From Heterodontus francisci (lineage: Eukaryota), in NCBI RefSeq assembly GCF_036365525.1, contig NC_090418.1, forward strand, positions 5,309,492 to 5,373,491: DNA of 64,000 nt. The letters run 5' to 3'. How positions within the stretch are numbered: the first letter of the stretch is position 1; the number at the start of each line of letters is the position of its first letter. This document shows positions 19,825 to 64,000 of this stretch, in pieces. The notes under the pieces were generated by a model. That model had not been told where the DNA came from and did no database searches. It saw only the letters and a program-made list of their open reading frames with translations. Position numbers and translations under genes: made by a program.

Positions 19825-21750
19825 GCGATCTGGGGACAGGTGGACCATTGGTGGGTTGAGGACAGGTGGACCATTGGTGGTTTGGGACAGGTGGCTCATT
19901 GGTGGTTTGGGACAGGTGGCTCATTGGTGGGTTGAGGACAGGTGGCTCATTGGTGGGTTGAGGACAGGTGGCTCATTGGTGGGTTGAGGACAGGTGGACG
20001 ATTGGAGGGTTGGGGCAGGTGGACGATTGGAGGGTTGGGACAGGTGGACCATTGGTGGGTTAGGATAGGTGGCCCATTGGTGGGTTGAGGACAGGTGCAC
20101 CATTGGTGGTTTGGGACAGGTGGCTCATTGGTGGGTTGAGGACAGGTGGACCATTGGTGGTTTGGGACAGGTGGCTCATTGGTGGGTTGAGGACAGGTGG
20201 CTCATTGGTGGGTTGAGGACAGGTGGCTCATTGGTGCGTTGGGACAGGTGGACGATTGGAGGGTTGGGACAGGTGGACCATTGGTGGGTTAGGATAGGTG
20301 GCCCATTGGTGGGTTGAGGACAGGTGGTTCATTGGTGGGTTGAGGACAGGTGGCTCATTGGTGGGTTAGGACAGGTGGCCCATTGGTGGGTTGAGGACAG
20401 GTGGACCATTGGTGGTTTGGGACAGGTGGCTCATTGGTGGGTTGGGGACAGGTGGTTTGGGACAGGTAGACCATTGGTGAGTTGGGACAGGTGGCCCATT
20501 GGTGGGTTGAGGACAAGTGGACCATTGGTGGTTTGGGACAGGTGGCTCATTGGTTGGTTGGGACAGGTGGCCCATTAGTGGGTTGGGACAGGTGGCTCAT
20601 TGGTGGGTTGGGGACAGGTGGTTTGGGACAGGTGGACCATTGGTGGGTTGGGACAGGTGGCCCATTGGTGGGTTGGGACAGGTGGCTCATTGGTGGGTTG
20701 GGGACAGGTGGTTTGGAACAGGTGGACCATTGGTGGGTTGGGACAGGTGGAACATTGGTCGGTTAGGACAGGTGACCCATTGGTTGGTTGAGGACAGGTG
20801 GCCCATTGGTGGGTTGGGACAGGTGGCCCATTGGTGGGTTGAGGACATTTGGACCATTGGTGGTTTGGGACAGGTGGCTCATTGGTTGGTTGGGGACAGG
20901 AGGACCGTTGGTGGGTTGGGACAGGTGGCTCATTGGTGGGTTGGGACAGGTGGCCCATTGGTGGGTTGGGATAGGTGACTCATTGGTGGGTTGGGACAGG
21001 TGGCTCATTGGTGGGTTGGGGACAGGTGGTTTGGAACAGGTGGAACATTGGTGGGTTGGGACTGGTGGCCCATTGGTGGGTTGTCATGTGGCTCATTCGT
21101 GGGTTGGGACAGGTGGCCCATTGGTGGCTTGGGACAGGTGGCACATTGGTGGGTTGAGGACAGGTGGACCATTGGTGGGTTGGGACAGGTGGCCCATTGG
21201 TGGGTTGGGACAGGTGGCTCATTGCTGGGTTGGGGACAGGTGGTTTGGGACAGGTGGACCAATGGTGGCTTGGGACAGGTGGCCCATTGGTGGCTTGGGA
21301 CAGGTGGCACATTGGTGGGTTGAGGGCAGATGGCTCATTGGTGGGTTGAGGACAGGTGGCCCATTGGTGGGTTGGGACAGGTGACTCATTGGTGGGTTGG
21401 GACAGGTGGCTCATTGGTGGATTGGGGACAGGTGGTTTGGAACAGGTGGACCATTGGTGGGTTGAGGACAGGTGGACCATTGGTGGGTTGGGACAGGTGT
21501 TTCATTGGTGGGTCGGGACAGGTGGACCATTGTTGGGTTGAGGACAGGTGGACCATTGGTGGGATTTTTTTTGTAACCCCCGTTTTTTTTTATAAGGTGG
21601 CCTTTATACCCCTGGCCCCTTTTAAGGGCCATTGGTGGTTTGGAACAGGTGGCTTATTGGTGGTTTGGGGCAGGTGCACCATTGGTAGTCTGGGGACAGG
21701 TGGACCATTGGTGGTCTAGTGACAGGTGGACTATTGATGGCTTGAGGATA
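19825..21750. repeat. Minisatellite, ~70 copies of ~26-27 bp GGACAGGTGG(CT/AC/CC)CATTGGTGGGTTG(A)G
   Basis: Directly visible. It generates all the spurious W/G-rich ORFs here. Confidence 0.97.
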
Positions 21751-25603: not shown

Positions 25604-26194
25604 ATGCTGACCTTTCATAGCTTCCGCGTCAAATTGAAAAGACTGGTAGCTGGAGAAGTGTGTGGGTTGAACGCCAAAGAAGGGACTATTGTGGCTGGAC
25701 TGTTCATGTTGATGGTATCCATCATGCAGCTCATCTTTGAAGTAGGGCATTTGCGTCATTTCAAGACCATGACAAATGCCGGCTCCGCAAATAATAGCAC
25801 AAATCGATATTCCAGTCAATTATTCTGCATCGGATCAATTGCTTTTATCTGTATGACCTTCATTGCAGTTTTTCTCTTGTTCCTATCTATCTGGAAGGAG
25901 AAATTCTGGGGCGTAGGAGGCTACATCATTTGGATATTCATTTATGAGCTTGCACAGATTTGCTTCCTGGCTACCGCATTGCCTTATCAGGTTGAGCTCC
26001 CAGATAGTGTGCGAGCGCTGGAATGGTTTGGGCTCACCATGCGCCTGATTTCGCACATTTTCTGGCTGATGTTTGTGACTGTACATGCAATCGACTTGTA
26101 CAAAATCAGCAGGAATGCTGATGATCCCTTGAAAAGCACGCGGATGACTCCACCAAAACTCAAGTTTGCAAAGGTCAAGGAGCTGGCCATGTAA
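25604..26194 (+). CDS. TMEM217: TMEM217-like four-TM membrane protein (196 aa), single coding exon
   Basis: Motifs CGLNAKEGTIVAGLF..MQLIFE..HL, YIIWIFIYE and VRALEWFGLTMRLISHIFWLMFV align by eye with human TMEM217 ([56 protein letters not shown]). Four hydrophobic segments. Acceptor ctttcag at 25577. Confidence 0.85.
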   Translation: MLTFHSFRVKLKRLVAGEVCGLNAKEGTIVAGLFMLMVSIMQLIFEVGHLRHFKTMTNAGSANNSTNRYSSQLFCIGSIAFICMTFIAVFLLFLSIWKEKFWGVGGYIIWIFIYELAQICFLATALPYQVELPDSVRALEWFGLTMRLISHIFWLMFVTVHAIDLYKISRNADDPLKSTRMTPPKLKFAKVKELAM

Positions 26195-31545: not shown

Positions 31546-31655
31546 TCACACCTGCAGCAGCCCCATGAAAGTCGAGTCTTTCTCCATGACAATGTTTGCA
31601 GAGTTACGAGGGATCACCAGTTCTATGATATCCCCTTTCTGTAGCCTATAGATAC
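31546..31655 (-). CDS. TNFSF13: TNFSF13 exon 6: (G)IYRLQKGDIIELVIPRNSANIVMEKDSTFMGLLQV*
   Basis: Acceptor ctctttttgaag, phase 1. TGA at 31548-31546. Confidence 0.92.
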
Positions 31656-35974: not shown

Positions 35975-36116
35975 CTGCACTGTAGCAAGTGTTGAAGGGC
36001 TCCTTCTCCGGCATATTCTGTGTGCATCTGAGCAGCGTTTCCTCATTCTTCTGCCTTCCGTGTTCCTTTCTCTTCACGACATGACCCATGACAAACGTCT
36101 GGTCCCGATACAGGAC
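35975..36116 (-). CDS. TNFSF13: TNFSF13 exon 5: VLYRDQTFVMGHVVKRKEHGRQKNEETLLRCTQNMPEKEPFNTCYSA(G)
   Basis: Acceptor ctgtttgcccag, donor GTAAGT, phase 0/1. Conserved disulfide cysteines. Confidence 0.93.
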
Positions 36117-36578: not shown

Positions 36579-36691
36579 CTGGGTATAAATGAAATAGTAA
36601 CCATTCCCTTTAATGGTGATAGTGCTGTTCTTCTGTTCAAAGGATTCACCAGTGTCTAAGATCTTCTGCCAGTGAATAATGGTACTGTCAC
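36579..36691 (-). CDS. TNFSF13: TNFSF13 exon 4: (G)DSTIIHWQKILDTGESFEQKNSTITIKGNGYYFIYTQ
   Basis: Acceptor cttgttacag, donor GTATGG, phase 1/0. Contains the TNF signature GxYxIYxQV. Confidence 0.93.
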
Positions 36692-38142: not shown

Positions 38143-38190
38143 CTTGCAATCTGTAAGAAGAAGGGACCAGGTGGATGAATGAGCTTCTCC
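38143..38190 (-). CDS. TNFSF13: TNFSF13 exon 3 (48 bp): (R)RSSFIHLVPSSYRLQ
   Basis: Hand-translated. Acceptor ttctgtgcag, donor GTGAGT, phase 1/1. Matches the APRIL strand-A motif SVLHLVP. Confidence 0.9.
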
Positions 38191-41145: not shown

Positions 41146-41308
41146 TTCTCTGTTTGTGCCTTCGTCTCTTGCCGGAGTCTCGTTCTACGCGGAGTGCTTG
41201 CCGCACTGGTTCCCTGTTGTGGGAGTGGGCAGGATGAACGGGATCCAGGAGTGGAGGTGTGGTCGAGGTGTTGGCAGGAGGCCTCCTGTTACCCAACACG
41301 GGGGAGAC
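41146..41308 (-). CDS. TNFSF13: TNFSF13 exon 2 (163 bp, stalk): VSPVLGNRRPPANTSTTPPLLDPVHPAHSHNREPVRQALRVERDSGKRRRHKQR
   Basis: Hand-translated. Acceptor ctgaccctgactctacccacag, donor GTGAGC. Phase 0/1 bridges exons 1 and 3. Basic stretch at the expected position. Confidence 0.78.
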
Positions 41309-41749
41309 CTGTGGGTAGAGTCAGGGTCAGAGGTCATTCCAAAAACACAATGTCAACAGAAGTAGTTTGGGGCTCAATTTCTGAGGGAGGTCATCTTGAA
41401 AATTCCTAAATTGTACAACACAAGCCAAGAGATTTTTCAGACGTTGCTTCGAATTTCACCCCTCCTCCTTCAGAGGCTTCTCTGGGGCTTGGTCTGACAA
41501 CATCCCACCTCAAAGGCCTCATTAGAAGATACTGGAGCCTGGAGTCAGCCGTGCCCCTGTGGATAGCGCTCTCAGACGTTGTGGGTTCGAATCCCACTCC
41601 AGAGACCTGAGCACATAATCCAGGCTGACTCTCCCACTGAAGGAGGGCTGCACTGTCAGAGGTGCTGTCCTTCGTTTGAGGCATTAAGCAGAGGGCCTGC
41701 CTGCCCTCTCGAGTGGATGTAAAACGTCCCGTGGCACGGTTTTTAAGAA

Positions 41750-42065
41750 GATTAGATTAGATTAGATTAGAGATACAGCACTGAAACAGGCCCTTCGGCC
41801 CACCGAGTCTGTGCCGAACATCAACCACCCATTTATACTAATCCTACACTAATCCCATATTCCTACCAAACATCCCCACCTGTCTCTATATTTCCCTACC
41901 ACCTACCTATACTAGTGACAATTTATAATGGCCAATTTACCTATCAACCTGCAAGTCTTTTGGCTTGTGGGAGGAAACCGGAGCACCCGGAGGAAACCCA
42001 CGCAGACACAGGGAGAACTTGCAAACTCCACACAGGCAGTACCCGGAATCGAACCTGGGTCCCTA
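41750..42065 (-). mobile_element. HE1-type (V-SINE) tRNA-derived SINE with (CTAAT)n tail, inserted into a Deu-type SINE
   Basis: The - strand has B box ggttcgattcc and body gtgtggagtttgcaagttctccctgtgtctgcgtggg. (attag)n repeat at 41750-41772. The host SINE continues on both sides. Confidence 0.75.
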
Positions 42066-45000
42066 GAGCAGGGGAGATCTCCCCGGTGATCTGTGGTCAA
42101 TATCTGTCCCTCAACTAACACCACTGAAAAAACAGATGATCTGGTCATTGTCACATTTGTGGCTGTAAAGTACGTGGGGACGGTCTGAGGTGGCAAAAGG
42201 TGCTACAGAAATGCAAGTTCTTTCTTTAAGTACTGTTTGCAAGTTAGCCTCACAGGCACCATCTGCATTTGATGAGAGCTCCCTGCTCCTGACTCCTGTC
42301 CAGTTGGCTTAGGATCGGCATCTAATATTTTCGGGAAATAGAAGGGGAATTTCTGTTGAGAAATCCTCCCTGGCAGCCTATTGTTGCTTCTAGGTGGGTG
42401 GGAGGACAGATGACAACCGCCAGTGGCTCTGCTGCCCATAACTGCAGAGATACAGGTTCAAATCTAGCCCAGACCTCCGCGATGAAACAAAAGACAAAAC
42501 ATTCTGGAAACACGCGAAGGGTCTGTCAACGTCGGTCAAGAAAAATGAGGATGAATTTTATCAGAGTGAATGGTCCCAGTCTCTCTCTCTCTCTCCCTCT
42601 GTGCTGGCCTCAAGAGCTCTCTATGAAATTTATCAAGCCAGTGAACATCAAGCTGTTAAATAAACATACTCCCAATTTCTCAACCAAAGTTCAAGAGAAA
42701 GTCGCCGAAACCTGTCTGGCCAACAGAAAAAAAAACTTGGCTCCAGTCCCCTTTGCATTTCACCCCTCTTCTCACTGGTCGAGCATTGCCTCAATTTTAA
42801 AATTCTTAAGAGTTCAAATCCCCTTCTCCCTCACTATCCCTGTAACCTCCTCCAGCCCTACAACCCTCCGGGATCGCTGCGCTCCTCCAACCCTTGAGCA
42901 TGCCCCGATTTCCATCGCTCCACCATTGGCGGACGTGCCTTCAGCTGCCTGGGGCCCTAAGCTCTGGAATTCCCTCCCTAAACCTCTCCACCTCTCTCTC
43001 TCTCTCTCCTCCTTTAAGTCGTTCCTTAAAACCCACCTGTCCAAATAACTCCTTACGTGGCTTTTGTCTGAGAGCACTCACATGAACGCTTTAACCTGTT
43101 GCCTTTTATGGGCTTCAGGACATTCTGAGGATTTGATAAGAATCATCGAATCATAATAGAATACAGCACAGGAGGACATTAGCCCATTGTGCCTGTGCTA
43201 GCTATCGGAGAGAGCTATCCAATTTGTGCCACTCTCCTGCTCTTTCCCCATACCAAACATTCCCCCTTTCGAGTATATATCCAATCCCCTTTTGAAAGTT
43301 ACTATTTACAGCTTTCCGGAAGTGGATTACAGCTAAGGTGTTATCAAATGCAGAGTTTTCTGCTACAATGTGTTGCCCTCACTGCCTTCTCTAGACACGC
43401 ATGCCGTGCAATGACCAGTCTTTGTCTAACTTCCTGGCTCCAGTCCTAAGCTTTCCTATTGCCCCTTTTGACACTGTGTCCTCCTGTTGGGTTGCCAACT
43501 CCTGGACACATTCCCGGAGTTTTTGTTGCTTGAGCTCCTGCCTCCGACTCCGTGCCCCCCCACTCTCCCGCCATTGGCCGCACAACAAGTCCATCCTCAT
43601 GGTGCTCCTGCCCTCCCACGGCCAATTGGAACATGAGCAGAATCCTCATTACCTGATTGGATGCTTCTTGACCCTCGGTCAAACAGTGATTTCCCTCCAT
43701 CTCATCTCCCATATTTTTATTATGCACAATTTAGAAAACAAAAACAGGCCATTCGGCCCATCTGTTCCGTGCTGGTGTTTATGCTCCACACGAGCCTCCT
43801 CCCACCCCCTCTTCATCTCACCCTATCAGCATACCCTTCTATTCCTTTCTCCCTCATGTGTTTATCCAGCTTCCCCTTAAATGTATCGACACTATTCACC
43901 TCAACCACTCCCTGTGGGAGCGAGTTCCACATTCTCACCACTCTCTGGGTGAAGACGTTTCTCCAGAATTCCCGATCGGATTTATGAATAACTGTCTTAT
44001 ATTGATGGCCCCTAGTTTTGGACTCCCCCGCAAAGATGTGTCTACCCGATCAAAAACAATACTTTTAACACTGTTTGTTATTACTACCCGGGTGTTACTT
44101 GTAGCATTTTCCAGGAGATTAACCTCTTAATTCCTGGAGAGCCTATCTCTATCCCTCACCACCCCCCCCCGCCCCCCGCAACAAGCGCTGACTCTCAGAG
44201 TTCAGTATGAAATCAGAGGGCTTACCTTTGCCATGTATCAGTTCAACGGATGAATGAACAATAAGACTGATATTACTCAGAGAAAAGCCAAGGGTGAGTC
44301 ACAGAAAAAAAACTGCATCGTAGACTGCCAGAACAACGCCCTATTAGTTTAACATTTTGGTTAGTCATCCTGACCACTAAATGTTCTAGTTAAAGAGGAA
44401 TCACTGGACTGGCCGGGACAATTCTAATGTACAACATCCTCAGTTCCCCTCCACCCCAAATAGGGGTCACCAGCCGCATTCCCCCCCCATTTCCCCCGCA
44501 GAATTGGCTTGGAGACTACAGGAATTCATTAACCTCTAGCCGCAAAAGCCTGGCTGGTAACTCCACTGGAGCTCTTAAACAGGAATGTTGCCATCTTTTT
44601 CATATTTTATTTGAAGACGCTCAACTGCAAAAATATTGGAGATGGGGATAAAGGGTTAAGAGTTATCCAATCAGGTAACAAAGAGTCTGCTTGCTTTCCT
44701 ATTGGCTGCGGAAGAACGGGGCATGGCATTGGGAGGATGGACCTCTTGAGCGGCCATTTGTGGGGTATGCAGAAGGTGAAGTGAAAGAACATCCAAGATT
44801 GGTCCAACCAGTGTTGGCAACCCTTTCTGCCCATGGGCTACCAATTCTAACCGAACCATTTCTACTGTGTTGCACAGATTTGTATACCAGCCGTGATTGC
44901 TCATGTGACAATGTCATCGCGTCACTGTGCATGCTCCCTTGCACGCTTGGTAAATACATCCACTGCTGCCCTGGGTCGCACCAAGTCTTGTTCCCCTATC

Positions 45001-45444
45001 ACCCACTGCGCTCGCTGACCTACATTGACTCCTGGTCCAGCAACGCCTCGATTTTAAAATTCTCATCCTTGTGTTCAAATTCCTCCATGGCCTTGCCCCC
45101 CCTGCCTATCTCTGCAACCTCCTCCAGCCCCACAACTCTCTGAGATCTCGACGCTTCTCCAATTCTGGTCTCTCGTGCGTCCTCGATTTCCATCGCTCCA
45201 CCATTGGCGGCCATGCCTTCAGCTGCCTGGGGCCCTAAGCTCTGTAATTCCCTCCGTAAACCTCTCCGCCTCTCTCTCTCCTCCTTGAAGATGCTCCTTA
45301 AAACCTACCTCTTTGACCCAGCTTTTGGTCACCCGCCATAAGCACCTTGGCATGTATTACTATGTTGAAGGCACCTTATAAAGGCACGTTTTTCTTGTTG
45401 TTAATGCAAGCCCAACACCTTAGTCTGACTGGAATGATATGACG

Positions 45445-45895
45445 TCGGGGATACCAACTCTGGACATATTCCAGGAAATTTCATAAACTCCTGCCCCAAC
45501 CGCCCCGCCCCCGCCATTGGTCGCCTGACGCGTCATTCTTCACACTCCTATGTCCCGCGACCAATCGGAACGCGAACAGACTCCACATTACCACCAGTCA
45601 AACAACCTTGTCTCTTTAACCCATTCCCAATATTTTTATAACCAGTTAAGCAAAAGAGCGGAGAGAAAATGAAAAACGAAACGTTAAAAGCCCCGTTCCG
45701 AAGAAGGGTCACTGACCCGAAACGTTAACTCTGCTTCTCTTTCCACAGATGCTGCCAGACCTGCTGAGTGGTTCCAGCATTTCTTGTTTTTATTTTATAT
45801 TATATTATTATATTAAAAGCCCCTTGGATTTCTCCCCTGGGTTCACTCACAGACGGAGATTAATCTTTAATTCCTGGGGGGTTGGCAAACCCTGA
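45445..45895. mobile_element. hAT/Tip100-like MITE (ends GGGTTGCCAAC...GTTGGCAACCC); one of about 7 related copies
   Basis: Degenerate TIRs ggggataccaac / gttggcaaaccc. The internal sequence matches 18425-18630, 30590-30845(-), 43489-43720, 44560-44823(-), 52955-53323 and 56060-56410. Confidence 0.6.
45695..45812 (+). mobile_element. ~118-bp Penelope terminal mini-insertion made of the hammerhead motif, 3' end and (TTATA)n tail
   Basis: gtt-CCGAAGA-a-gggtc-act-gaccc-GAAACGTT-aac. 11-bp TSD TTAAAAGCCCC at 45684-45694 and 45813-45823. Confidence 0.8.
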
Positions 45896-46530
45896 TCCTG
45901 GAGCGCAGAGATAGGTCTGCAACCTTAGACTGGCCAGGTAGTGGCCGAGGAAGCGGGGGAGAGGTCAGATGTCGAATTTTGAAGTCGGCGAATATTAAAA
46001 ATTTAGATCAAACCTTTGCACTTTGTGAGTTGGCGACACACTCTAGAAATTTCCAGATTTCGCACTTCCAAAATAAAACATTCACCTCCAACTCATTACA
46101 GAATCTTAAAGCATAGAAGGCGGCCACTCGGTCCATCATGAGAAACTATCCGATTAGTTCCACTCCCCCACTGCTCTTTTCTCCCATAGCCCTGTAATTT
46201 CTTTCCCTTTTCAAGCATTTATCCAGTCCTCTTTTGGAAAGTTATTACTGAATCTGCTCCCACCGTCCTTTCAGAGCACAACACTGGCTGTGCAGGAGCA
46301 AAATTCCTCCACACCTCCACCACTCCTATAACAAGCTATTGATGTATTTAATCCCAGAGTTTGTATTGTTTTATCTAGCTCTGATTCCTGGAGTTTGCAT
46401 CTGTCAGCTTTAGAGGCAACTTTAGCAAGCATATTTAAAATTGCACTATTGAGACTCTGAGGCCCCTTCTCTTCCCAGGGCTAGGTCTGGGACGTGCAGC
46501 TCGCAAATGGTTACAAATTCACAACCTGAC

Positions 46531-46725
46531 CTGTGGGGCACTGTGGTGCTCCCTTGTGCCCTGGGCACTGCACTCCTCCCTCAGGCTCTCCACCTCCCTC
46601 CTCAGTCTCTCCATTTCTGCCGACTGCAAAACCTGGGCCACCAGGCACAGCAAGACTCCGGCCAAAGCGGCCAGCCCCAAGGAGACTGGCAGCACCATCT
46701 GCTTCTCTCCTCTGCAGCCAGCCAT
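46531..46725 (-). CDS. TNFSF13: TNFSF13 exon 1: MAGCRGEKQMVLPVSLGLAALAGVLLCLVAQVLQSAEMERLRREVESLREECSAQGTREHHSAPQ
   Basis: aacATGG start, TM helix, and (E)LRREV coiled motif as in APRIL (LQSLRREV). Donor CAG|GTCAGG, phase 0. Confidence 0.88.
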
Positions 46726-49700
46726 GTTTAACCAGGAAAGAAAGAGAGAATATGTGTTGTAGGAACTGGCACGTAGCCCAAAGTGGGAGGGAAAGCTCAA
46801 CTGGGTCAGGCGACTGTTTAATGAACAGTCAAAGCCGTCTAAACAGCAAAGTAACGCCCATTGCCCCAGATTTTTGTAATGCAGGTCAGCCTTTTACATT
46901 GTTGTTGTTGGCATGATGACTCAAACTGTAATATACTACAGGGTTCCCATCTCTTGTTGGACATCAGCAAAATTAAAGACCACTGTATTAAAAAACAGTG
47001 GCAGCTCGGATGCAAAACTGGCTAAGGGACAGAAAGCAGACAGGAGGGACATTTAGTGATGTCCCCCCAGAGGTCAACATTAGGACCACTACTCTTTCTG
47101 ATAATATACCAGTGACCGGGGCATAGTTTCCAAAGTTTGCAGACGACACGAAACTCAGAAATGAGGAGGACAGTAACAGACTTCAGGATGATGCGGACAG
47201 ACTGGTGAAACGGGCAGACACGGGGCAGAGGAAATGTAACGCAGAGACGTGTGAAGTGATACATTTTGGTGGGAAGAACGAGAGACAGCATGAATGAAAA
47301 GCTGCAGCGTTAAAGAGGGGGTAGGAACAGAGGGGCTTGGGCGTGTATGTAGAGAAATCTTTGAAAAGAACCTGGAGGTGGTGGCATTCCCATGCACTTG
47401 CCGGCGCTGGGCGATCGGCCCGGTTTTATTCTAACTCGACTTTTCTCTAGCGGTTTGATACAACTGAGTGGTTTGCTCGGCCATTTCAGAGGGCAGTTAA
47501 GAGTCAACCACATTGCTGTGGGTCTGGAGTCACCTGTAGGCCAGACCGGGTAAGGACGGCAGATTTCCTTCCCTAAAGGGCATTAGTGAGCCAGAATTTT
47601 TTTTTAATTAAACAACAATCCAGTAGTTTCATGCTCACCATTACTGTTAGGAGCCTTTTAATATCAGATTTATTTAATTAACTGAATTTAAATTTCTCGG
47701 GTGCCATGGTGGGACGTGTCTCCAGCTCACTAGCCCAGTAACCTCACTATGCTATCGTACCCATCTCAGTCTGATTTCACCTGACACCGAGGGTGAAAGT
47801 GTTTCAGTTGGGATAGTGGAGACATCAAATTGTAAGTCACGTCCATCAGACATTCAGGCCTCTTCCAAGCTTCCAGGTCGCAGTGTGAACGGGGCGCGAT
47901 TCTCGTTGTGGATCTATAGTTTCACTGCCAACAGCCCATTCATCCTTTTGTACTGAGAAAATGACCAATAGGATCGTCAGGCCCTGGCTGAGGCCTCGAG
48001 TGAGGTACATGAGCAAATCGGAGGCCCCTCCCCCCCCACTCACTCCACACCTCGTGTCCTCCAGAAACGTCAGCTCATCCCAAACTCAGCTCCCCCACCT
48101 CCTAACCCACACCAACAGCTGAATGTCTGCTTTGGGACCAATGGTGGTGGGGGCAACAGTCACTGACGCCTGGGAATTTGACCGGGGCGCCCCCTTAATG
48201 GGCATGGAGACGAGTTCCGTGGTGGCAGGACTGTTCTCAAAGTTTGAGGGCCCATATGGGCCCCAGTATTTCCAGGCCCCACCGCCTCCGTTCCTGACTT
48301 CAGTGGGGCGTGAAAATTCAGCCCCAAGTCCCTCTCAACCTGCACCCCTTGTGCTCATCGACCTACTATGGCTCCCGGTCTGCCATTGCCTTGATTTTAA
48401 AATACTCATCCTCCAGATCTCTGTAACCTCCTCCAGCCTGACGGCCCTCCGAGATCTCTGCGCTCCTCCAATTCTGGCCTCTTGAGCATTCCCTGATTTC
48501 CATCGCTCCACCGCTGGCGGCCGTGCCTTCCGCTGCCTAGCCCCCAAGCTCTGGAATTCCCTCTCCTAAACCTCTCCGCCTCTCTCTTCTCCTTTAAGAC
48601 TCTCCTTAAAACCGACCTCTTTGACCCAGCTTTTGGTCGCCGGTCCTAATCTCTCCTTTTGTATCAAATTTTGTCTGATAACTGCTCCTGTGAAGTGTCA
48701 GGTCAATTTACCACTTTAAAGGCACTATATAAATGCAAATTGTTGCTATCGAAAGGCTCACGACTTTTCCCAGTCTCTTATCGTTTGCATAATTTCGTGT
48801 GAAAGGTTAAATCAGGATTTAATAGTAGTTTTCAACCTGCTAAGATCCTCTTGCCAGAACACGGAAAGTTGGAGCAAGATGCGTGTTCGATCATGTTTCC
48901 TTCAGGGAGAACCACAGGATTTTGCCTGAGCAATCAAGAAAATGGATGCTTTTGGCAAAGGTTATGGGTTGCAAGACATGTTCCAACATTACAACCCCGT
49001 TGCAACTTGGAGGTAAAGGACTTTGGGATGTGGTGAAAGGCATTGGGGAAATAACAGTTCTGTGTTTTCTGTTAAATGCTGATAAATAAAGCCTTGCATT
49101 TCAATAGCACCTTTCACCCCGCCCCCCGGCGCATCCCCAAAGCACTTTCAGATACTTTTTTAAAAAAAGTGTAGTCGCTGTTGTAATGTAGAAAATGCAG
49201 CAGCCAATATGCGCACAGCAGAATCTCACAAACAGCAATGTGGTAATGACAAGATGATCTGTTTTTCGTGAGATTGGTTATGGGATAAATATTGACGGCA
49301 GGACACTGGGGAGAACTGCCCCCAGCTCTTCTTGGAAACAGTGGTCCTGCAGAATCTCCCATGAGCACCCAAGAGAGCAGCTGGGCCCTCAGTTTAAGAA
49401 ATCACCCAAAGGACAGCACCTCTGACAGTGCAGAGCTGGGGGGCACATGGGGGGGGTCAGAGGAAATTCTGTGCTCACGTATGTGGAGTGGGTCTTGAAG
49501 CCACAACTTTCTGACTCAGAGGCTGCGTTACAGCTGACAACAAGCTTACCACTTAGTCTCACTCCCCTGCTTTTTCCCCATAGTCCTGCAAAAAGTTTCT
49601 TTTTAAGCGCACATGTAAATGCATCACTGGGTGCAGGAATAGAGCAACTTGCAATTGTACTCAACAGTCTTTGAAGGTGGCAAAACAAGTTGGCAACGTT

Positions 49701-49859
49701 GGCTTTATTGATAGAGGCGGAGAGTGCAAAAGCAAAGATGTTATGCTGAACCTTTATAAAGCACTGGCTCGCCCACAATGCGAGTCTTCTCTCCAATTCT
49801 GGGCACTATTCTTTAGAAAGGATGCTCGGAAAAGGTGTAGAGGAGATTTACCAGAATTT

Positions 49860-50690
49860 ATTCATTCTGGAATGTGGGAGTCTCTGGCTAGGCCAGAATT
49901 TATTGCCCATCCCTAATTGCTCGAGAAGGTGGTGGTGAGCTGCCTTCTTGAACCGCTGCAGTCCATGTTGGGTAGGTACACCCACAGTGCTGTTTGGGAG
50001 GGAGCTCCAGGATTTTGATCCAGCGACAGTGAAGGAACGGCGATATAGTTCCAAGTCAGGATGGTGTGTGACTTGGAGGGGAACTTGCAGGCGGTCGTGT
50101 TCCCATGCATTTGCTGCCTTTGTCCTTCTAGGTGGTAGAGGTCGTGGGTTTGGAAGGTGTTGTTGAAGGAGCCTTAGTGAGTTGCTGCAGTGCATCTTGT
50201 AGATGGTACACACTGCTACCACTGTCTGTTGGTGGTGGAGGGAGTGAATGTTTATGGTGGTGGATGGGGTGCTGATCAACTGGGCTGCTTTGTTCCTGAG
50301 TGTTGTTGGAGCTGCCCCCATCCAGGCAAGTGGAGAGTATTCCATCACACTCCTGACTTGTGCCTTGTAGATGGTGGACAGGCTTTGGGGAGTCAGGAGA
50401 GGAGTTACTCGCACAGAATTCACAGCCTCTGACCTGCTCTTGTAGCCATAGTATTTATATGGCTGGTCCAGTTAAGTTTCTAGTCAATGGTAACCCCCAG
50501 GATGTTGATAGTGGGGGATTCAGCGATTGTAATGCCATTGAATGTCAAGGGGAGATGGTTAAATTCTCTCTTGTTGGAGATGGTCATTGCCTGACCCTTG
50601 TGTGGTGCAAATGTTACTTGTCACATCAGCCCAACCCTGAATGTTGTTCAGGTCTTGCTGCATGCAGGCACAGACTGCTTCAGGATCTGA
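49860..50690 (-). mobile_element. Non-LTR retrotransposon 3' fragment (same family as 21790-23210)
   Basis: LSTIYKAQVRSVMEYSPLAWMGAAPTTL...YKMHCSNS...WSSLPNS peptides. Confidence 0.8.
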
Positions 50691-53600
50691 GGAGTTACTT
50701 CAGTTATGTGGAGAGACTGAGCAAGTTCTCCTTAGAGCAGAGAAGGTGAAGAGGAGATTTAATAGAGGTGTTCAAAATCATGAGGGGTTTTGATAGAGTA
50801 CGTAAGGAGAAACTTTTTCCAGTGGTGGGGTGTTTGTCAATTATCTTGAATCTCTCTCCTCTGCCTACCAAAGGAAAGGGAGGCCCCACGAGGAAAACAG
50901 TTTTTACACAGCAAGTTGTTGTGATCTGGAATGCATTGCTTGACAGATCGAAGGATGATGATTCAACTCTCTAAAGAGAATGAGGTTAAGTACTTGAAGA
51001 AAAAATAACAAGAGTTATAAGAAAGAGCAGGGGAGTGGGGCTAATTGAATAGATCTTTCAAAGATGCAATGAGCAGAATGGCCTCCTTCTGTGCTGTTTT
51101 TGTATGAAGCTACACTGAGGACCCTCAGCCTGACAATATGGAAGATGGTGAGGAAATAGGGCGTTTTCAACAATTAACTGCAGCCAGAACTTGGTTATTT
51201 TAAACCAACTTCATCTGAACAATCCCTGCTTCCCTGCATCAAGAGACACGTCCAACACCTAGCCCACTCCTTCCACTGTCCCAATCTCTCCACCATTGGC
51301 AGCCGTGCCTTCAGCTAAACTCTGGAATTCCCTCCCTAAACCTCTCCGCCTCTCTCTCTCTCCCACTTTATGACGCTCCTTAAAACTGACCTCTCTGACC
51401 AACCTTCTGGTCGCCTGTCCAAATATCTCCCTATGTGGCTCGGTGTCAAATTATGTTTGATAACACTCCTGTAAAGCACCTTGGGACATTTTACTATGTT
51501 AAAGTCACTATATAAATGCAAGTTGTTGTTATTGTAGACAGCAGAGAGAACAAAATGCTTGCAGTGTTTGTCCGCTCCGGGTCTTAAGCTTCTCCTTAAA
51601 GCTGTGTTGCCATGGGACTGTTTTGGAGATATTTGCAATTCCGCCTGTCTTGATGGTTTAACATCAGTGTTGTATTCACGTGCAGGGAGTTTAAAACATT
51701 GGAAAGTCCCTTCCTAACAGGATAGGCGTTCCTTTCCGAATTCCAGCCGTGAAGTCCTTGTTCTGAAGTGTAGTCACTGTTGTAATGTCGGAAATGTAGC
51801 AGCCAATTTGCACATAGAAAGCTCCCATAAACAGCAATGTGATAATGACCAGATCATCTGTTCCAGTGATGTGGGTTGAGGGATAAATATTGGTCCCAGG
51901 ACATCGGAAAGAACTCCCCTGCTTCCCTTTGAAATAGTGGCAGGATCTTTTAGGCTCACCTGGGTGGGCAAATGGGGCTTCGGTTTAAGACCTCACTGAA
52001 AGACGGCACCTCCGACAGTGCAGCACTCCCTCAGTGTCTGCCCAGATTTTGCGCTCAGGAATCTAGAACAAGCCCTGGGCACGAATATCCACTATCACAC
52101 ATGCCCGCCCAATCATTATAAAACCTTCTGGCACATAAGGAGGCCATTCAGCCCTTCCTGCCTGTATCAACTCTTTGAAAGAGCTATCCAATTAGTCCCA
52201 CTCCCCCCTCTTGTGATTTTCACCTTTTCAAGTATTTCTCCAATTCCCCTTTTGAAAGTTACTATTGAATCTGCTTCCACTGCCCTTTCAGGCAGCGCGT
52301 TCCAGATCACAACAACTCGCTGTGTAAAATAAATTCTCATCTCCCCCTCTGGTTCTTTTGCCAATTGTCTTAAACCTGTGTCCCTCTGGTTACCAACACC
52401 CCCCCACTGGAAACAGTTTCTCCTTATTTACCCTATCAAAACTTTCATAATTTTGAACACCTCTATTAAATATCCCCTTAACCTTCTCTGCTCGAAGGAG
52501 AACAATCCCAGCTTCTCCCAGTCTCTCCACATTAACTGAACTCCCTCATACCATTCCAGTAAATCTCCTCTACACCCTCTCCAAGCCCTTGACACTCTAA
52601 AATATGGTCACCACAATACCTCAGCCAACTGCAGTCCCTGGTACCACACTGGTAAATCTCTCTAAGGAATGACTCCGAAGCAGGCCCTTTCTGTCTCTCC
52701 ATAATGCAACGGGACACAATGTGGGGGTGCAGGGCAGAAGACTCAAAAGAACACACGGGGATAAATCTGGAATAAAAAATATTTAATAAAATATAATACC
52801 GACAATGCCTTCTCTTAGCAGCAACATTACAAAGCTTCACTTGAGAGCTAACCTCCCCTTTACTGAGAGTGGAGAGGAGTTCTCAAATCAATTGCCTCCC
52901 GCTGTTCACAGTTATAGAAATAATGCCAACACTTTGGGTGGGAATCTTTACCCGGGGGTTGCCAACTCTCCCTGGATGCATTCCTGGAGCTTTCATCACA
53001 TGACCTCCTGTCTCCCTCTGCCCTGCCCCCACACTTCCATTGGTTGCCTGACATGTCCATCCTCGTGGCGCCCAATCCCACAGCCAATCAGAAAGCAAAC
53101 AGCCTCCTCCCAGTTGGATGATCCTTGAGTTGTCTCCCCCCGCCCCAACGTCCAATATTTTTGAAACGAATAAAAACATTTTTTTGGGGGGGGAAAAAAA
53201 GCACTTTTTTTTTGTTAACTCCTCCACAATGGTTTCCCTCCTGGAGACGCTCGCAGCCGAGACCTGTGGAACTAAATCTTTCATTCTTGAAGCTCAGGGA
53301 AATCCTGGAGGGTTGCCAACCCCATCTTTACCCCAGGAACACACAAAAAGACAGGACACAAGTACCCGAAAAAGCACAGAGCTTGAACAACACAAACAGC
53401 ATATAACTCACATTCTTAGTTCATCAGCTTGGTCCTGAGGGAAGGCATTAGCGCAGGCTGCTGCTTTTTAAGCACCCCCCCACCCCCAGCTTCAAATCCC
53501 TCAGGAATGGACATCAGTCTCCTCCTCACAGCCAGATGGCTCCAACACTTCAAAGTGTTCGGGGGAAATCTTAATCCAGTCAGGGTGGGTTCACAGTGTT

Positions 53601-56600
53601 CATTTAACAACCTCACTCACTCAGGCGGCAAGGCGGCTGGTCTGGGAGTCAGGAGGGGTTCACACAACACAAGAGCAACATGTCTTCGCATCCCTCTCAC
53701 TCCACGCACAGCTAATCCCGAAGTGTACAACAAGCTCCCCAAAATGGGATGACAAACTTGGCCAAACCTTTATCTTTTCTGTACTAATTCTCGAGATGTG
53801 GGCATTGGCCATTCCTCTTTGCTCCTCGAGGTGGTGCTGGAATCTGAGTGAGGCCATTTCAGAGGGAAGTGTCCAGCACGATGGTGTGGGACTGGTCATA
53901 GAGGTCCAGACCGGGTAAGGACGACCTGTAGGGTTCATCCTCAAAGTGCCATGGTGGGATTTGAACTCACGTTCCCTGGATTATGAGTCCAGGGATTACT
54001 TGTCTAGACACATAATGGCTACACACACTACTGTACCAGCATTAAACCTATTTTTGGTAATGTTGGTAGAGGGATAGATATTGTCACAAGACACTAGGTG
54101 GAGCTCCCCCGTTCATCTTCAAAATAGTGACCGTGGGATCTTTAATGTCCACCTGAGGGGGCAGACAGGGCCCCAGTTTAATGTCTCATATGAAAGACAG
54201 CACCTTCAACAGCGCGGCGCTCCCTCAGTACTGCCCCTCCGACAGTCCGTCACTCCCTCAGTACTGACCCTCCGACTTCGTGGCGCTCCCTCAGTACTGA
54301 CCCTCCGACAGCGCGGCGCTCCCTCAGTACTGACCCTCCGACAGTGTGGCGCTCCCTCAGTACTGCTCTGGGACTGTCAGCCTGGATTTTGTGCTCCGAT
54401 TGTGCTCTGAAGGCACAGTTGGGAGGCCGGGAGTAGAGTAACCATATTTGTGCTAAGCCACACCCACCTGTGAGTGCTTGGTGCTCAGAATAGGTGGAAA
54501 GAAGAAAATGTGTTCATCACCAATATCCTCTCAGTTTTACCTGCACCCTGGAAGAAGCAGGCACCAAAAGTGCGACTTGCACACAGAATCTTATGGTAAT
54601 AGGGGTCATCCTTAGTACTGACCTATCAGCTGGACACTCAGAGATGCCTTAAATTCAAAAGAGATTCTCCTCACTGATAGAAGCTTGAGAAAGCTACAAT
54701 TTATACACCAGGTTACATTATGTGTTCAGTCCTATGTACAGTAGGATTGCGGCTGGCACCAGACAATGGTAATAAACAATGCTCACGGATTCAATGAAAC
54801 TGTGAGATTGTGGGAGTGGTAGAGGGGGATCGGGGGGACGTTTGCAGGCGGAAACAAAGACCCTCAGCAGCCGTGGGTCGAGTGCTGGTGATGGAGTTTC
54901 ATCCAGGTGTAGTCCCCAATTCTGCGCGCGCCCACCTCCCCTCCCCTCCCTATCTCACACACTCACCGAGATTGCAGCTCCCACCCTCGTTCACCATTGA
55001 CGTTCTGGCTAGACCTCAGCTCCTCGGGTGACCAGGGCGACAGGCCCTTTGAGGAAGCTGGCAGCACAGCCGATGGCCTGCGTTACGGCACCATGACAGA
55101 GTTCGAGTATGGCTGCACTGGACTCCTTAAAGAGAGACGCACGCCCGTGAGGAGGGAAGAGGCAAGGAAACGTCATTCTCAACAATATATTACGCCAACA
55201 ATATTCAACCTCAACTCGACGAATCGCAAAACAGTTAAATATAAATAATATACATATATATATAAAATATACATAAAAGACAGCCCCCAGAACAAAGCTG
55301 TTGAGGCTGGGGGTCAATTGAAAATCTCCCAACTGAGATTGATAAAAAAAAATGTCTTAGTATTAAAGGGTTACAGAACCCGAAGCTAGTAGATGGAATG
55401 ACGATACAAATCAGCCATGTTCTCACTGAATGGCGGAACAGGCTTGAGGGGCTGAATGGCCTCCACCTGTTGCTATGAAACGCAAAGGTGGTGCGGTGGG
55501 GGGGCGGTTACATCATCGGTCAGCGACACAAGGCGGCGCAGGTTCGGACATTACTGGCTCAGCAAGAATTCAGGCCTCCCCATGGGCTGGGGGGGCGGGG
55601 GGGGGGGGGGGGGGGAAAGAGGCCAGCCCGGGTCACAGTTACCAATTTGGGCCCGATTTTTAACTCTCTCAAAACCCATTCACTTACACAGAATTATCCC
55701 TCTCCCCAGTCCAGGTCAAATCGTCCACAATGTACTTTATAACTACAGGCCATCAATAGAAGAGAGTCACTCATAAATCCAATGGGGAATTCAGGAGTAA
55801 CTTCTTTACCCAGAGAGTGGTGAGAATGTGGAACTCGCTCCCACAGTTGCAGGAAAGCTCCACCGACCTGCACTGGCTCCCAGTCCAGCAAGTGGCCATC
55901 ATAAAATAAAATTCTCATCCTCGTCTTCAAATCCCTCCTTGGTCTCATCCCCTCTCTAACTCTGTCACCTCCTCCAGCCCCACAACCCTCAATGCTTTAA
56001 TTTTCAATATTATTCCTTACTCCCTCCCTTCCATCCCATAAACAGGCTCACAATTTCCACAACGGTTCCCGACTCCAGTCGGATGGATTTCTGGAGATTT
56101 GATCAAATGACACCCCCTCCCCCAACCACCCAACACTCCCGCTATTGGTCACCGGACATGTCCATCCTCACGGAGCCCCACCCCCTACCATCCCACGGCC
56201 AATCAGAAAGCAAGCAGTTTCTTCCTCGATGGTCAAACCGCCATTTCCCCCCTCCCCCCCCCCCCCCACAGTCTCCAATCTTCTGACAAACTGGTAAGCA
56301 AAAATTACTCAAAGGAATTTGAATATAATTTTTTTTCTCTCTCCCGGTTCCCCTCTGATTGTTCTCCCAAGTTTGCTCAGAGCAATTGTCCTCGAGATTC
56401 ATCCTTCATTCCTGACAATTTCTCCTCGGAGAAATGGCGGCCCCCCCCCCCCCCCAGCACATCAAACGGCCACAGAGCGGGAAATCCTCTCCAGACGGAC
56501 ACACAGGCCGCGCTACTGCACTGCTGCCCTCGGCACCTCCCTCTGCTGCAGACACCGGGGTCCGGTTTCGCTGACCCTTCACGTGCGGCCCTGGATGGCG

Positions 56601-57174
56601 GACTATTCGACTGCAGGGGCATCGCAACTGAACTCTGCAACCGCCCCCCCCCACCCCACCACTTCCCTCAACCCCCACAGTTCCTGAAGGAAGTCATCAA
56701 ATGGTGATCAGGAGCATCCCTTCACCCCTTCCCCCACACCCCCCCTCACCCCTTCCCCCACACCCCTGCCCTCACACCCCTCCACCCCCCCCTCACCCCT
56801 GCCCCCACACCCCTCCACCCCCCCCCTCACCCCTTCCCCCTGCCCCCACACCCCTCCACCCCCACAGCGGAGGTCAGCAGTCTCAGTACAGAAACAGGGA
56901 CCCATATCTAACATCTGCCTTGGGAAGCATAAAGAACTTGTTTTAAACAGTGAAACTGCCCTAGAGTCCTGGCAGGAAGGGAGGGCTCCATCTCAGGGCA
57001 ATCCAGAGACTTTCTCCGCGTTTAAATGTTGAGATAATGTCCCTAAGTCGTTAGTGGGAGGGATCGCTCGCCACTCCAGGCAACAGCGCTGGTTAAAGCA
57101 GGAAAACTGTGCCCCTATCTCTGACGTTGTGGTTTTATGTCTGAAAAGTCTCGACGATATGCAGCGGGACCCAT

Positions 57175-57178
<4 letters not shown>

Positions 57179-57210
<32 letters not shown>
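57179..57210. repeat. (CA)n microsatellite just downstream of the TWEAK stop codon
   Basis: Directly visible. Confidence 0.95.
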
Positions 57211-57212
<2 letters not shown>

Positions 57213-57236
57213 ACAAAGACACTGCTGTGGCTTCCT

Positions 57237-57482
57237 TTAAAGTTTAAACAGTCCAAAGTAGGTGAATGTCTTGGTTTTCAGGCGCACTCCTGCAATGCTG
57301 TAGATGGCGATCCGAGATTCCTTCATGAGCCTGACTAAACCGGACGCTTGGCACGAATGGACGGTCAGCTGCTGGCCGTAGAGAGGGGTCGGGGGCAAAC
57401 CCTGCAGGCACTTAAAGGTCACCAAGTTGTCCACCTTCACGTCCAGCTTTAAGTAGGCTGTGGTGTTGTCATCGCAGTGAAC
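57237..57482 (-). CDS. TNFSF12: TNFSF12 (TWEAK) last exon: VHCDDNTTAYLKLDVKVDNLVTFKCLQGLPPTPLYGQQLTVHSCQASGLVRLMKESRIAIYSIAGVRLKTKTFTYFGLFKL*
   Basis: Acceptor tatttgcag, phase 0. Matches TWEAK VHFDE..VYLKLD..VD..RCL...CQVSGL...TYFGLF. Confidence 0.9.
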   Translation of the reverse strand, partial: VHCDDNTTAYLKLDVKVDNLVTFKCLQGLPPTPLYGQQLTVHSCQASGLVRLMKESRIAIYSIAGVRLKTKTFTYFGLFKL

Positions 57483-57654
57483 CTGCAAATACATCAAGAG
57501 AGAGGTAACAGTGACAGGAACATTCAGTCACAGTGTCTGGAATCAGCTGTCGCTCGGTGGGTCGCTCACTCTCTTTCTCACCTCTGAGTCATAGGCCGGG
57601 GGTTCAAGTTCTGCTCCAGAGAATTGAGCACAAAATCCAGGCCAACACTCCCAG

Positions 57655-57915
57655 TGCAGTACTGAGGGAGTGCTGCACTGTCGGGGGGTCAGTACCGAGG
57701 GAGTGCTGCACTGTCGGGGGGTCAGTACCGAGGGAGTGCTGCACTGTCGGGGGGTCAGTACCGAGGGAGTGCTGCACTGTCGGGGGGTCAGTACCGAGGG
57801 AGTGCTGCACTGTCGGGGGGTCAGTACCGAGGGAGTGCTGCACTGTCGGGGGGGTCAGTACCGAGGGAGTGCTGCACTGTCGGGGGGGTCAGTACCGAGG
57901 GAGTGCTGCACTGTC
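57655..57915 (+). repeat. 33-bp tandem expansion (~8 copies) inside a SINE
   Basis: Unit AGTACCGAGGGAGTGCTGCACTGTCGGGGGGTC. A smaller expansion of the same segment lies at 54215-54365. Confidence 0.92.
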
Positions 57916-58663
57916 GAAGGTGCCGTCGTTCGGATGAGACGTTAAATCGAGGTCCCATTGCCTGTGTGGGTGGATGGAGAAGAACCTGTGACATTATTTG
58001 AAAGGAGAGCAGGGGGAGTTCTCCCTCGTATCCCGGGGCTAATACGCATCCCTCAATCAACATTACAAAAGGAAAATGATCTGTTCATTATCCCATTGCT
58101 GTTTGTGGGATCTTGCTGTGCGCAAATCAGCTGCTGTGTTTCCTACATTACAACAGTAGACTACACTTCAAAAAAGTGCATCATTGGCTTTGAGATGTCC
58201 GGTGGTGGTGAAAAGTGTTACAGAAAAGCAAGACTTTCTTTCTGTCCATATAAAATAGCGTATCACTCCACTTACTGCGAGGATAGAGAGGGACAGAGAC
58301 AGGTATAGAGAGAAACAGGGAGGGAGTAGGTAATCTATTCAGCCTTGGAGAGCAATGATGCAGCAACTATCTGCTGCCAGTCGATTGCTGGGGATTGCAC
58401 AGTCTGCCCACTTACAGGGCTGTTGCTGCCCCTATTACTGTAAAGCACATTAACTTCAAAATAACAGTTTCACCATCGGACTTCCCGAGAAAGGCCACAG
58501 ACAGACCCAGTTACAGAGAAAGTTACAGAGGGGGATGAGGCCACGGAGGGATTTGAAAACACGGACGAGAATTTTAAAATTGAGGCAGTGCTGGACCGGG
58601 AGTTTGGGGCAAAAAAAATCCCCCAATGCTTGGACAAGCTACCGCTGTTAATGAGACACTTAC

Positions 58664-58782
58664 CTGACTGTACAGGAAGTAGACTCCGTCTTTGCGAACG
58701 GTGAAATCTCCAGTCTTATTGTTATACTGCAGAGGACTTTTCACCCGTAGCTGGCGTTCTGACCACTGTCTGATGATCCCAC
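58664..58782 (-). CDS. TNFSF12: TNFSF12 (TWEAK) penultimate exon: GIIRQWSERQLRVKSPLQYNNKTGDFTVRKDGVYFLYSQ
   Basis: Acceptor ttttttgacag, donor CAG|GTAAGT, phase 1/0. Matches TWEAK W.E......SPLRYN..GEF.V...GLY.LYCQ. Confidence 0.9.
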
Positions 58783-61281: not shown

Positions 61282-61967
61282 CTGAAAACTGAGGACTCAC
61301 CTCGTCACATCCCAGAGCTATAAACCCAATAATCTGGTTTTGATGTACACGGACACTGTTATTTTTAGGCAAAGACTTGCATTTACATAGCAACTTTCTC
61401 AACCTCAGGAGATCCCAAAGTCCTTTAAAGCCAATTAAATACTTTTTTAAAAAAAAGTGTAGTCACTGTTGTAATGTACGAAACGCAGCAACCAATTTGC
61501 GCACAGCAAGCTCCCACAAACAGCAATGTGGGGTAATCAGATCATCTGTTTTTAGTGATGTTGATTGAAGGTTAAATACTGGCCCTAGGACACCGGGGAG
61601 AACTGCCCCCTGCTCTTCTTCCAAATAGTGGCTGCAGGATAGTTTAAAGCCACCTGAGAGGGCAGACGGGGCCTCGGTTTAACGTCTCATCCAAAAGACG
61701 GCCTGGCCCCTCTGACAGTGCAGCACTGAGGAAATACTTAATCACAGTGATACAAAGCTGGGCTACAGTGTCGACATGACAGAGCGAAAACAGATCACAC
61801 CAACAGAAATAATTACGTACTCTTTTCAACTAGATATATTCCATCATCAGCCGTGGGCATCACTGCAAGAAAAATACAACAGCAATTAACATTGCAGAAG
61901 TACGAAAGATATTTTGCCAAATTTCACCTCTCTTCTGAACGCACTCTCACTTCATGTTCCTCAAACA

Positions 61968-64000
61968 TTGACTCTCACTGGGGTACAGTTCCACACACAC
62001 TGACTCTCACTGGGGTACAGTTCCACACGCACTGACTCTCACTGGGGTAGAGATCCACATGCACTGACTCTCACTGGGGTACAGTTCCACACACACTGAC
62101 TCTCACTGGGATACAGTTCCACACGCACTGACTCTCACTGGGGTACAGTTCCACATGCACTGACTCTCACTGGGGTACAGTTCCACACACACACTGACTC
62201 TCACTGGGGTACAGTTCCACACGCACTGACTCTCACTGGGGTAGAGATCCACATGCACTGACTCTCACTGGGGTACAGTTCCACACGCACTGACTCTCAC
62301 TGGGATACAGTTCCACACGCACTGACTCTCACTGGGGTACAGTTCCACACACACACTGACTCTCACTGGGGTACAGTTCCACACACACACTGACTCTCAC
62401 TGGGGTACAGGTCCACACACATTGACTCTCACTGGGGTACAGTTCCACACACACTGACTCTCACTGGGGTACAGTTCCACACACACACAGAGTCTCACTG
62501 GGGTACAGTTCCACACACACACTGACTCTCACTGGGTACAGTTCCACACGCACTGACCCTCACTGGCGTACAGTTCCACACGCTCTGACCCTCCTCATTG
62601 GGGTACAGTTCCACACACACACTGACTCTCACTGGGGTACAGTTCCACACACACACACAGACTGACTCTCACTGGGGTACAGATCCACACACACACACTG
62701 ACTCTCACTGGGGTACAGTTCCACACAAACTAACTCTCACTGGGGTACAGTTCCACACACACACTGACTCTCACTGGGGTACAGTTCCACACACACACTG
62801 TCTCTCACTGGGGTACAGTTCCACACACACACTGACTCTCACTGGGGTACAGTTCCACACACACACTGACTCTCACTGGGGTACAGTTCCACACACACAC
62901 TGACTCTCACCGGGGTACAGATCCACACGCACAGACTCTCACCGGGGTACAGATCCAAGCACACTGACTCTCACCGGGGTACAGTTCCACACACACACTG
63001 AGTCTCACTGGGGTACAGTTCCACACGCACTGACTCTCACTGGGGTACAGTTCCCCACGCACTGACTCTCACTGGGGTACAGTTCCCCACGCACTGACTC
63101 TCACTGGGGTACAGTTCCACACTCACTGACCCTCACTGGGGTACAGTTCCACACGCTCTGACCCTCCTCATTGGGGTACAGTTCCACACACACTGACTCT
63201 CACTGGGGTACAGTTCCACACACACACTGACTCTCACTGGGGTACAGTTCCACACACACTGACTCTCACTGGGGTACAGTTCCACACGCACTTACTCACT
63301 GGGGTACAGTTCCACACGCACTGACTCTCACTGGGGTACAGTTCCACACACACACTGACTCTCACTGGGGTACAGTTCCACACACACTGACTCTCACTGG
63401 GGTACAGTTCCACACACACTGACTCTCACTGGGGTACAGTTCCACACACACACTGACTCTCACTGGGGTACAGTTCCACACACACTGACTCTCACTGGGG
63501 TACAGTTCCACACGCACTTACTCACTGGGGTACAGTTCCACACGCACTGACCCTCACTGGGATACCGTTCCACACGCTCTGACCCTCATTGGGGTACAGT
63601 TCCACACACACACTGACTCTCACTGGGGTACAGTTCCACACAAACTAACTCTCACTGGGGTACAGTTCCACACACACACTGACTCTCACTGGGGTACAGT
63701 TCCACAAACACTGACTCTCACTGGGGTACAGTTCCACACGCACTTACTCACTGGGGTACAGTTCCACATGCACTGACCATCACTGGGGTACAGTTCCACA
63801 CGCACTGACCCTCACTGGGATACCGTTCCACACGCTCTGACCCTCCTCATTGGGGTACAGTTCCACACACACACTGACTCTCACTGGGGTACAGTTCCAC
63901 ACAAACTAACTCTCACTGGGGTACAGTTCCACACACACTGACTCTCACTGGGGTACAGTTCCACACACACACTGACTCTCACTGGGGTACAGTTCCACAC
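61968..64000. repeat. Minisatellite, ~60 copies of ~32-36 bp CTGACTCTCACTGGGGTACAGTTCCAC(AC)n, running off the window edge
   Basis: Directly visible. No unique spacers, so it is not a CRISPR array. Confidence 0.97.

Follow-up and report, generated by a model that had tools for sequence, protein, structure and literature searches.

In mammals, the neighbouring genes TNFSF12 and TNFSF13, which encode the ligands TWEAK and APRIL, give rise to a fusion known as TWE-PRIL, and the question raised by the same tandem in a shark is whether it makes, or could make, such a protein. In the horn shark Heterodontus francisci, the relevant part of both genes lies in a stretch of 64,000 nucleotides (contig NC_090418.1, positions 5,309,492 to 5,373,491 of the forward strand), hereafter the window, and an initial annotation of this DNA had proposed that the exon phases would permit a read-through product of the TWE-PRIL type. 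The window holds an ordinary jawed-vertebrate TNFSF12–TNFSF13 tandem of two separately annotated genes. We consider it probable that these are two ordinary genes with low-level read-through between them, whose in-frame product is minor at most.

Splice geometry of the TWEAK–APRIL tandem

In the window, TWEAK and APRIL both lie on the minus strand with TWEAK upstream of APRIL, and each encodes a type II membrane ligand of the TNF family with its own anchor. The gap from the TWEAK stop codon, which ends at 57237, to the APRIL ATG at 46725 measures 10,511 nt, which bears out the same-strand spacing of about 10.5 kb reported in the initial annotation. The last three coding exons of TWEAK and all six coding exons of APRIL are contained in the window, with every intron being GT-AG, while the earlier TWEAK exons fall past the window end. 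Specifically, the three TWEAK exons encode the last 134 aa of the NCBI H. francisci TNFSF12 protein (P0001, 260 aa) at 100% identity, and the six-exon APRIL model is residue-identical to the NCBI H. francisci TNFSF13 protein (P0012, 256 aa). Because the exon models agree with the NCBI proteins of the same species, both boundaries of the proposed junction are right.

The identity of the upstream gene is clear from comparison with the PDB, in which human TWEAK (4HT1) scores 95 bits (E=4e-26) and the next family 34 bits. Additionally, the gene adjoins TNFSF13, a position reported to distinguish TNFSF12 from chondrichthyan CD40L (PMC11762692). The downstream gene encodes a TNF domain of the BAFF/APRIL type that scores higher against human BAFF (TNFSF13B, 112 bits) than against APRIL (101 bits), but it lacks the BAFF flap insertion, its alignment with APRIL (residues 120–255) is longer than that with BAFF (135–255), it adjoins TWEAK, and NCBI names it TNFSF13. 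Synteny and the NCBI name point to TNFSF13, and BAFF and BALM were rejected on the missing flap together with the synteny beside TWEAK.

The proposed fusion would join the TWEAK penultimate exon (58664..58782, 119 nt, phase 1 to 0), which corresponds to human exon 6, with APRIL exon 2 (41146..41308, 163 nt, phase 0 to 1), which encodes a Pro-rich stalk, a conserved RVxRDS motif and a basic cluster. The donor at 58664 lies in phase 0 and reads CAG|GTAAGT, matching the consensus at 9/9 positions, and the acceptor at 41308 is likewise entered in phase 0; both phases are as first annotated, and the two boundaries agree with the NCBI H. francisci TNFSF12 and TNFSF13 proteins, respectively. Splicing 58664 to 41308 removes an intron of 17,355 nt and leaves the frame open to the APRIL stop, and the computed product, a TWE-PRIL-like protein in which, as had been anticipated, the TWEAK anchor is combined with the TNF domain of APRIL, comes to 179 + 191 = 370 aa. 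Human TWE-PRIL, with a shorter exon 2, has about 330 aa. The human junction is listed as exon 6 to exon 2 (a row of Table 1 in PMC6862657), and shark TWEAK aligns with human TWEAK 4HT1 across the junction with the donor at the same position, so that the mammalian precedent cited in the initial annotation holds. Relative to mammalian TWE-PRIL (NM_172089), the two genes, their order and strand, the donor after the Y-x-Q of TWEAK exon 6 and the phase-0 entry into APRIL exon 2 are all the same, whereas the shark version is predicted from gene layout only, its 370 aa include a 54-aa Pro-rich APRIL stalk, and shark APRIL carries RVxRDS at the corresponding position, not a canonical furin site.

In the predicted 370-aa product, the TWEAK tail and anchor (hydrophobic peak at 21) are followed by a polybasic furin-type site at 105–109, by an orphan half TNF domain and then by the stalk and TNF domain of APRIL. 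A strong furin-type site of the form R-X-K/R-R lies between the anchor and the junction in all 12 chondrichthyan TWEAK stalks (12/12). No such site is found in the horn-shark APRIL stalk (P0012), and it is present in 4 of 12 shark APRIL models. The minimal RVxRDS motif (window 41170–41200, minus strand) is kept in 11/12 shark APRIL models, where a variable basic cluster follows it, and is a candidate non-canonical convertase site. Mammalian TWEAK also has a furin site, yet TWE-PRIL is called a cell-surface protein. Mammalian APRIL is cut in the Golgi, and TWE-PRIL thus matters there as the surface form (PMC6262789). A poorly cut shark APRIL would already be a surface ligand, and fusion would then add mainly TWEAK-driven expression and the TWEAK tail.

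The phase match itself is weak evidence for a fusion, because 5 of the 10 possible pairings between the window's two TWEAK donors and five APRIL acceptors are in frame anyway. The phase-0 intron after Y-x-Q occupies the same aligned column in APRIL itself (36579|36116), in which exon 4 (36579..36691, 113 nt) ends on YTQ in phase 0, at the intron position of the TWEAK donor, and exon 5 (35975..36116, 142 nt) opens with a phase-0 acceptor and carries a short loop at the place of BAFF's flap insertion. Being common to TWEAK and APRIL, this intron predates the split between them and needs no fusion to explain it. Intron phase is generally conserved among vertebrate orthologues, and its conservation is known for BAFF and EDA; a literature search on the intron phases of BAFF/APRIL genes gave no paper with that phrase among those listed. 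Given the human phases and this general conservation, the match is to be expected wherever a jawed vertebrate has retained the tandem. Bony as well as cartilaginous fishes are reported to have the gene pair (PMC11762692, PMC7674686), and a published model places its origin before the first vertebrate genome duplication (PMC11762692). The phase match thus says little about fusion, being the same in human, with the intron shared by APRIL and the shark tandem already published, and it was rejected as a sign of selection; we infer that the phases agree because they are ancient traits of TNF-family genes passed down without change, and not through selection for fusion.

On paper, a second in-frame option exists from TWEAK exon 6 (58664) to APRIL exon 5 (36116), which share an intron position and phase and would yield one TNF domain of hybrid make-up; no observation points to such a splice being used.

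As in the gnathostome tandem represented by the human 17p13 block (Marin 2020, 2025), TNFSF12 lies beside TNFSF13 in chondrichthyans and a WRAP53/TCAB1-like gene is present in the shark window, whereas the text of the 2025 paper (PMC11762692) does not treat Heterodontus and contains neither the word TWE-PRIL nor the word fusion. The shark tandem is already published, and its inherited layout adds little. The suggestion that the capacity for fusion dates to the gnathostome ancestor holds only trivially, the tandem and its intron phases having been inherited, and goes no further, with no exon 6|exon 2 model among the 23 proteins described below. Joining an upstream penultimate exon to a downstream exon 2 defines the Type I class of cis-spliced adjacent genes (PMC6862657) and is the commonest read-through pattern, accounting for 42% of conjoined mRNAs (PMC2953495); the parents of conjoined genes lie a median of 10 kb apart, and both frames are kept in only 16%. 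The shark genes resemble this class in exon pairing and in their spacing of about 10 kb, and differ from it in that the locus displays opportunity only, from its gene layout.

Fused and joined models in sharks and rays

Homolog searches returned 2 of 5 candidates, 11 of 1,629 and 12 of 20, which together amount to 23 different named proteins of chondrichthyans, representing 15 species. The protein set consists of cluster representatives, and a 370-aa product falls within the lengths searched (143–455 aa and 84–2000 aa). None of the 23 named proteins couples the N-terminal half of TWEAK to in-frame APRIL exon 2, and no fused H. francisci protein was found among the hits. In 11 of the 12 TWEAK-containing named proteins YSQ is followed by the usual last exon, and the remaining one terminates without reaching the junction. 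P0011 (Pristis) and P0010 (Scyliorhinus torazame) were considered as fusions and rejected, neither of them containing APRIL sequence. In the literature searched, which leaves out most subscription journals, no description of a TWE-PRIL from sharks or from any other non-mammal was found.

A further search of a 50%-cluster library returned 69 hits, 65 of them unnamed. TWE-PRIL geometry, in which the TWEAK match stops at query residue 179–182 and a second matched stretch is present, was seen in five unnamed proteins (P0053, P0056, P0058, P0062 and P0081). These are probably not sharks, because their identity of 29–37% is well below the 53–74% of the named chondrichthyan TWEAKs; judged by these match values, they may be mammalian or human. 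Another unnamed hit, P0028 (45% over 168 aa), is uninformative, since the 13 residues past its YSQ match neither APRIL nor the window. Overall, 8 of the 69 library hits have a long second part after their TWEAK domain.

Two of the 23 named models join TWEAK to APRIL, through junctions other than the proposed one. In the catshark Scyliorhinus canicula, TNFSF12 X1 runs 24 codons into the TWEAK last exon and then continues with a 58-residue tail. The tail corresponds to APRIL exons 2–3 read in the +1 frame: 59/59 positions, stop included, are dual-frame compatible with APRIL of the same species, against a maximum of 22 over 187 other offsets and of 24 over 500 shuffles, and tblastn places the tail at window 41307–41146 (E=1.7e-11). 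The model thereby combines the exon-2 acceptor (homologous to window 41308) with a cryptic donor inside the TWEAK last exon (homologous to window 57412), and plain catshark APRIL is entered by NCBI under that one gene as its isoform X2; the S. canicula proteins concerned are P0009 and P0023. Such a transcript would stop in exon 3 and would be a target for decay. In the horn shark, the site matching this donor, after 57412 in the TWEAK last coding exon (57237..57482, to the TAA stop; 4HT1 match E=1.2e-9), is weak (TAA|GTGCCT, 5/9).

The other joined model, TNFSF12 of Mustelus asterias (P0020), is 507 aa long and consists of the whole of TWEAK, nine linker residues and the whole of APRIL with its anchor, a second hydrophobic segment lying at 267, between the two TNF domains. 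Among the hits of the two larger homolog searches (11 of 1,629 and 12 of 20), there was no separate Mustelus TWEAK or APRIL. The TWEAK model of S. torazame (P0010) is frameshifted about ten codons past the point at which catshark X1 exits, its tail corresponding to window 57402–57256 in the shifted frame (E=2e-12), and no intact TWEAK C-terminus was found among the hits for either Scyliorhinus species, which may reflect assembly error or real gene decay in the genus. The catshark and Mustelus models may stem from real read-through reads or from merges made by the predictor.

Two APRIL isoforms of other sharks touch on the same exons. P0014 (Heptranchias), homologous to window 46819–46568, starts upstream of the ATG in another frame and rejoins the exon-2 acceptor, and lends independent support to that acceptor and to transcription upstream of the ATG. 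In P0017 (Cetorhinus), APRIL isoform X1, a 19-aa insert between exons 2 and 3 resembles a repeat that occurs several times in the window and is a probable exonised repeat.

Transcription termination and competing explanations

The TWEAK 3' untranslated region (UTR) and the intergenic spacer together occupy 46726..57236 (10,511 nt, minus strand), of which 43% is repeat-like by self-BLAST. A variant ATTAAA at 52782..52787 had been named in the initial annotation as the only candidate TWEAK poly(A) signal noticed, but the sense (minus) strand of the spacer, from stop to ATG, carries 5 AATAAA (49904, 49862, 49709, 47674 and 47430) and 10 ATTAAA hexamers, the nearest of the latter to the TWEAK stop being at 56001. 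The choice nevertheless holds up, in that, among the 15 hexamers, the ATTAAA at 52787 stands in the most favourable context, with the highest downstream U content (0.38), UGUA upstream and a position outside repeat-like sequence, and it is a reasonable candidate for the real TWEAK poly(A) site. The first 7,333 nt after the TWEAK stop are free of AATAAA (P ~0.05 given the mean rate across the window), and the first three canonical signals (49704..49904) lie 7.3–7.5 kb downstream. This mildly favours leaky termination and to that extent agrees with the earlier idea that a variant signal far downstream could favour read-through; the idea was overstated, however, and the missing hexamer proves nothing.

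We propose that most TWEAK transcripts would end in the 10.5-kb spacer, with the ATTAAA at 52787 as the best candidate site, and that polymerase escaping termination would continue into APRIL. APRIL exon 1 would then be skipped, since it is uncapped, and the exon-2 acceptor would take any upstream donor, either that of exon 6, which keeps the frame and gives 370 aa, or a cryptic one within the last exon or UTR of TWEAK, whose products would mostly lose the frame and be degraded. The catshark X1 and the 507-aa Mustelus models suggest read-through leakage of this kind, and a TWE-PRIL-type mRNA in sharks is likely to be a minor by-product at most. Several points weigh against this reading from opposite sides. 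The exon 6 donor is a perfect consensus, whereas that of APRIL exon 1 (coding part 46531..46725, encoding a short tail and a transmembrane segment at ~aa 11–29, and ending in phase 0) is weaker (CAG|GTCAGG, 7/9); the perfect donor, the weaker one and the lack of AATAAA for 7.3 kb all favour read-through splicing. The absence of the junction from the 23 named proteins is a weak negative, because rare isoforms are often unannotated and so missed by protein models, of which only representatives were covered; human TWE-PRIL itself was backed by a single mRNA/EST in one survey. On the other side, the joined models may have arisen as artefacts of annotation, and all evidence of leakage would then fall away.

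A more ambitious explanation is that sharks possess a regulated and functional TWE-PRIL, inherited from the gnathostome ancestor, in which splicing of exon 6 to exon 2 yields a 370-aa membrane protein that brings APRIL to BCMA and TACI under the TWEAK promoter. We regard this as quite unlikely. The junction geometry and frame are as in human, the tandem has been retained in bony and cartilaginous fishes, the spacing equals the median for human conjoined genes, the exon-2 acceptor of the catshark model takes an upstream TWEAK donor, and mouse TWE-PRIL has a function in vivo (PMC6262789), all of which would suit such a protein, but 0/23 named shark and ray models show the junction and the two joined models use other ones, one of them out of frame. 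The furin-type site in every TWEAK stalk further implies that the TWEAK anchor may not hold the APRIL domain, and horn-shark APRIL, with its own anchor and no R-X-K/R-R in its stalk, may already be membrane-bound, so that the main mammalian rationale for a fusion would be gone. In one survey, human conjoined-gene junctions moreover showed no significant conservation in fish or frog. In a broader version, to which we also give little credence, TWEAK-to-APRIL read-through would be ancestral and persistent, its in-frame exon 6 form being a functional TWE-PRIL with an age of over 400 million years and the reason why the tandem was kept from sharks to mammals, and the out-of-frame form would arise from that read-through as an alternative product coupled to decay. 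If demonstrated, a shark TWE-PRIL would rank among the oldest conserved read-through proteins, would offer a reason why the tandem has persisted and would be relevant to the presentation of APRIL to B cells in the earliest adaptive immune systems. With exact junction coordinates and a catshark model that uses the same acceptor, this becomes a cheap question for public RNA-seq.

Conversely, there may be no real read-through in sharks, TWEAK terminating efficiently and the catshark and Mustelus models being prediction merges that arose from assembly errors or sparse data, a possibility that we take seriously while judging it rather unlikely. The S. torazame frameshift lies near the exit of catshark X1, where a predictor might splice around an indel, the second hydrophobic segment between the two TNF domains of the Mustelus model makes an implausible topology, merges look common at this locus to judge from the 8/69 library hits with a long second part, and the spacer offers 15 poly(A)-type hexamers. 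A merge would not readily account for catshark X1, however, which enters APRIL precisely at the genuine exon-2 acceptor and keeps to the exon 2–3 splice in a non-coding frame, nor for the filing of plain catshark APRIL as an isoform of the same gene by NCBI. Such variants are more typical of read-supported than of ab initio Gnomon models. We retain low-level read-through between two ordinary genes as the probable reading.

Remaining features of the window

The remaining coding exons of the two genes, all on the minus strand, comprise the TWEAK antepenultimate coding exon (61821..61862, 42 nt, phase 1 to 1), which forms part of the 134-aa suffix identical to P0001, APRIL exon 3 (38143..38190, 48 nt) and APRIL exon 6 (31546..31655, 110 nt, to the TGA stop). 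Two TWEAK introns hold tandem arrays: a 32-bp minisatellite of 62 copies at 61956–64000, which runs off the window end, and a 33-bp array of 7.8 copies at 57657–57916 in the last intron.

In convergent orientation to APRIL, 5.3 kb beyond the APRIL stop, a single-exon open reading frame of 196 aa on the plus strand (25604–26194) matches Pfam DUF4534 (E=1e-24), which we take to be the TMEM217 family. A WD40 gene at ~1970–17800 on the minus strand is consistent with WRAP53/TCAB1, its exon 2060–1971 matching chain K of 7BGB and its large exon 13886–12885 encoding an acidic tandem repeat. Between this gene and the DUF4534 reading frame, a large low-complexity tandem array with units of ~22 bp extends from 19860 to 21660.

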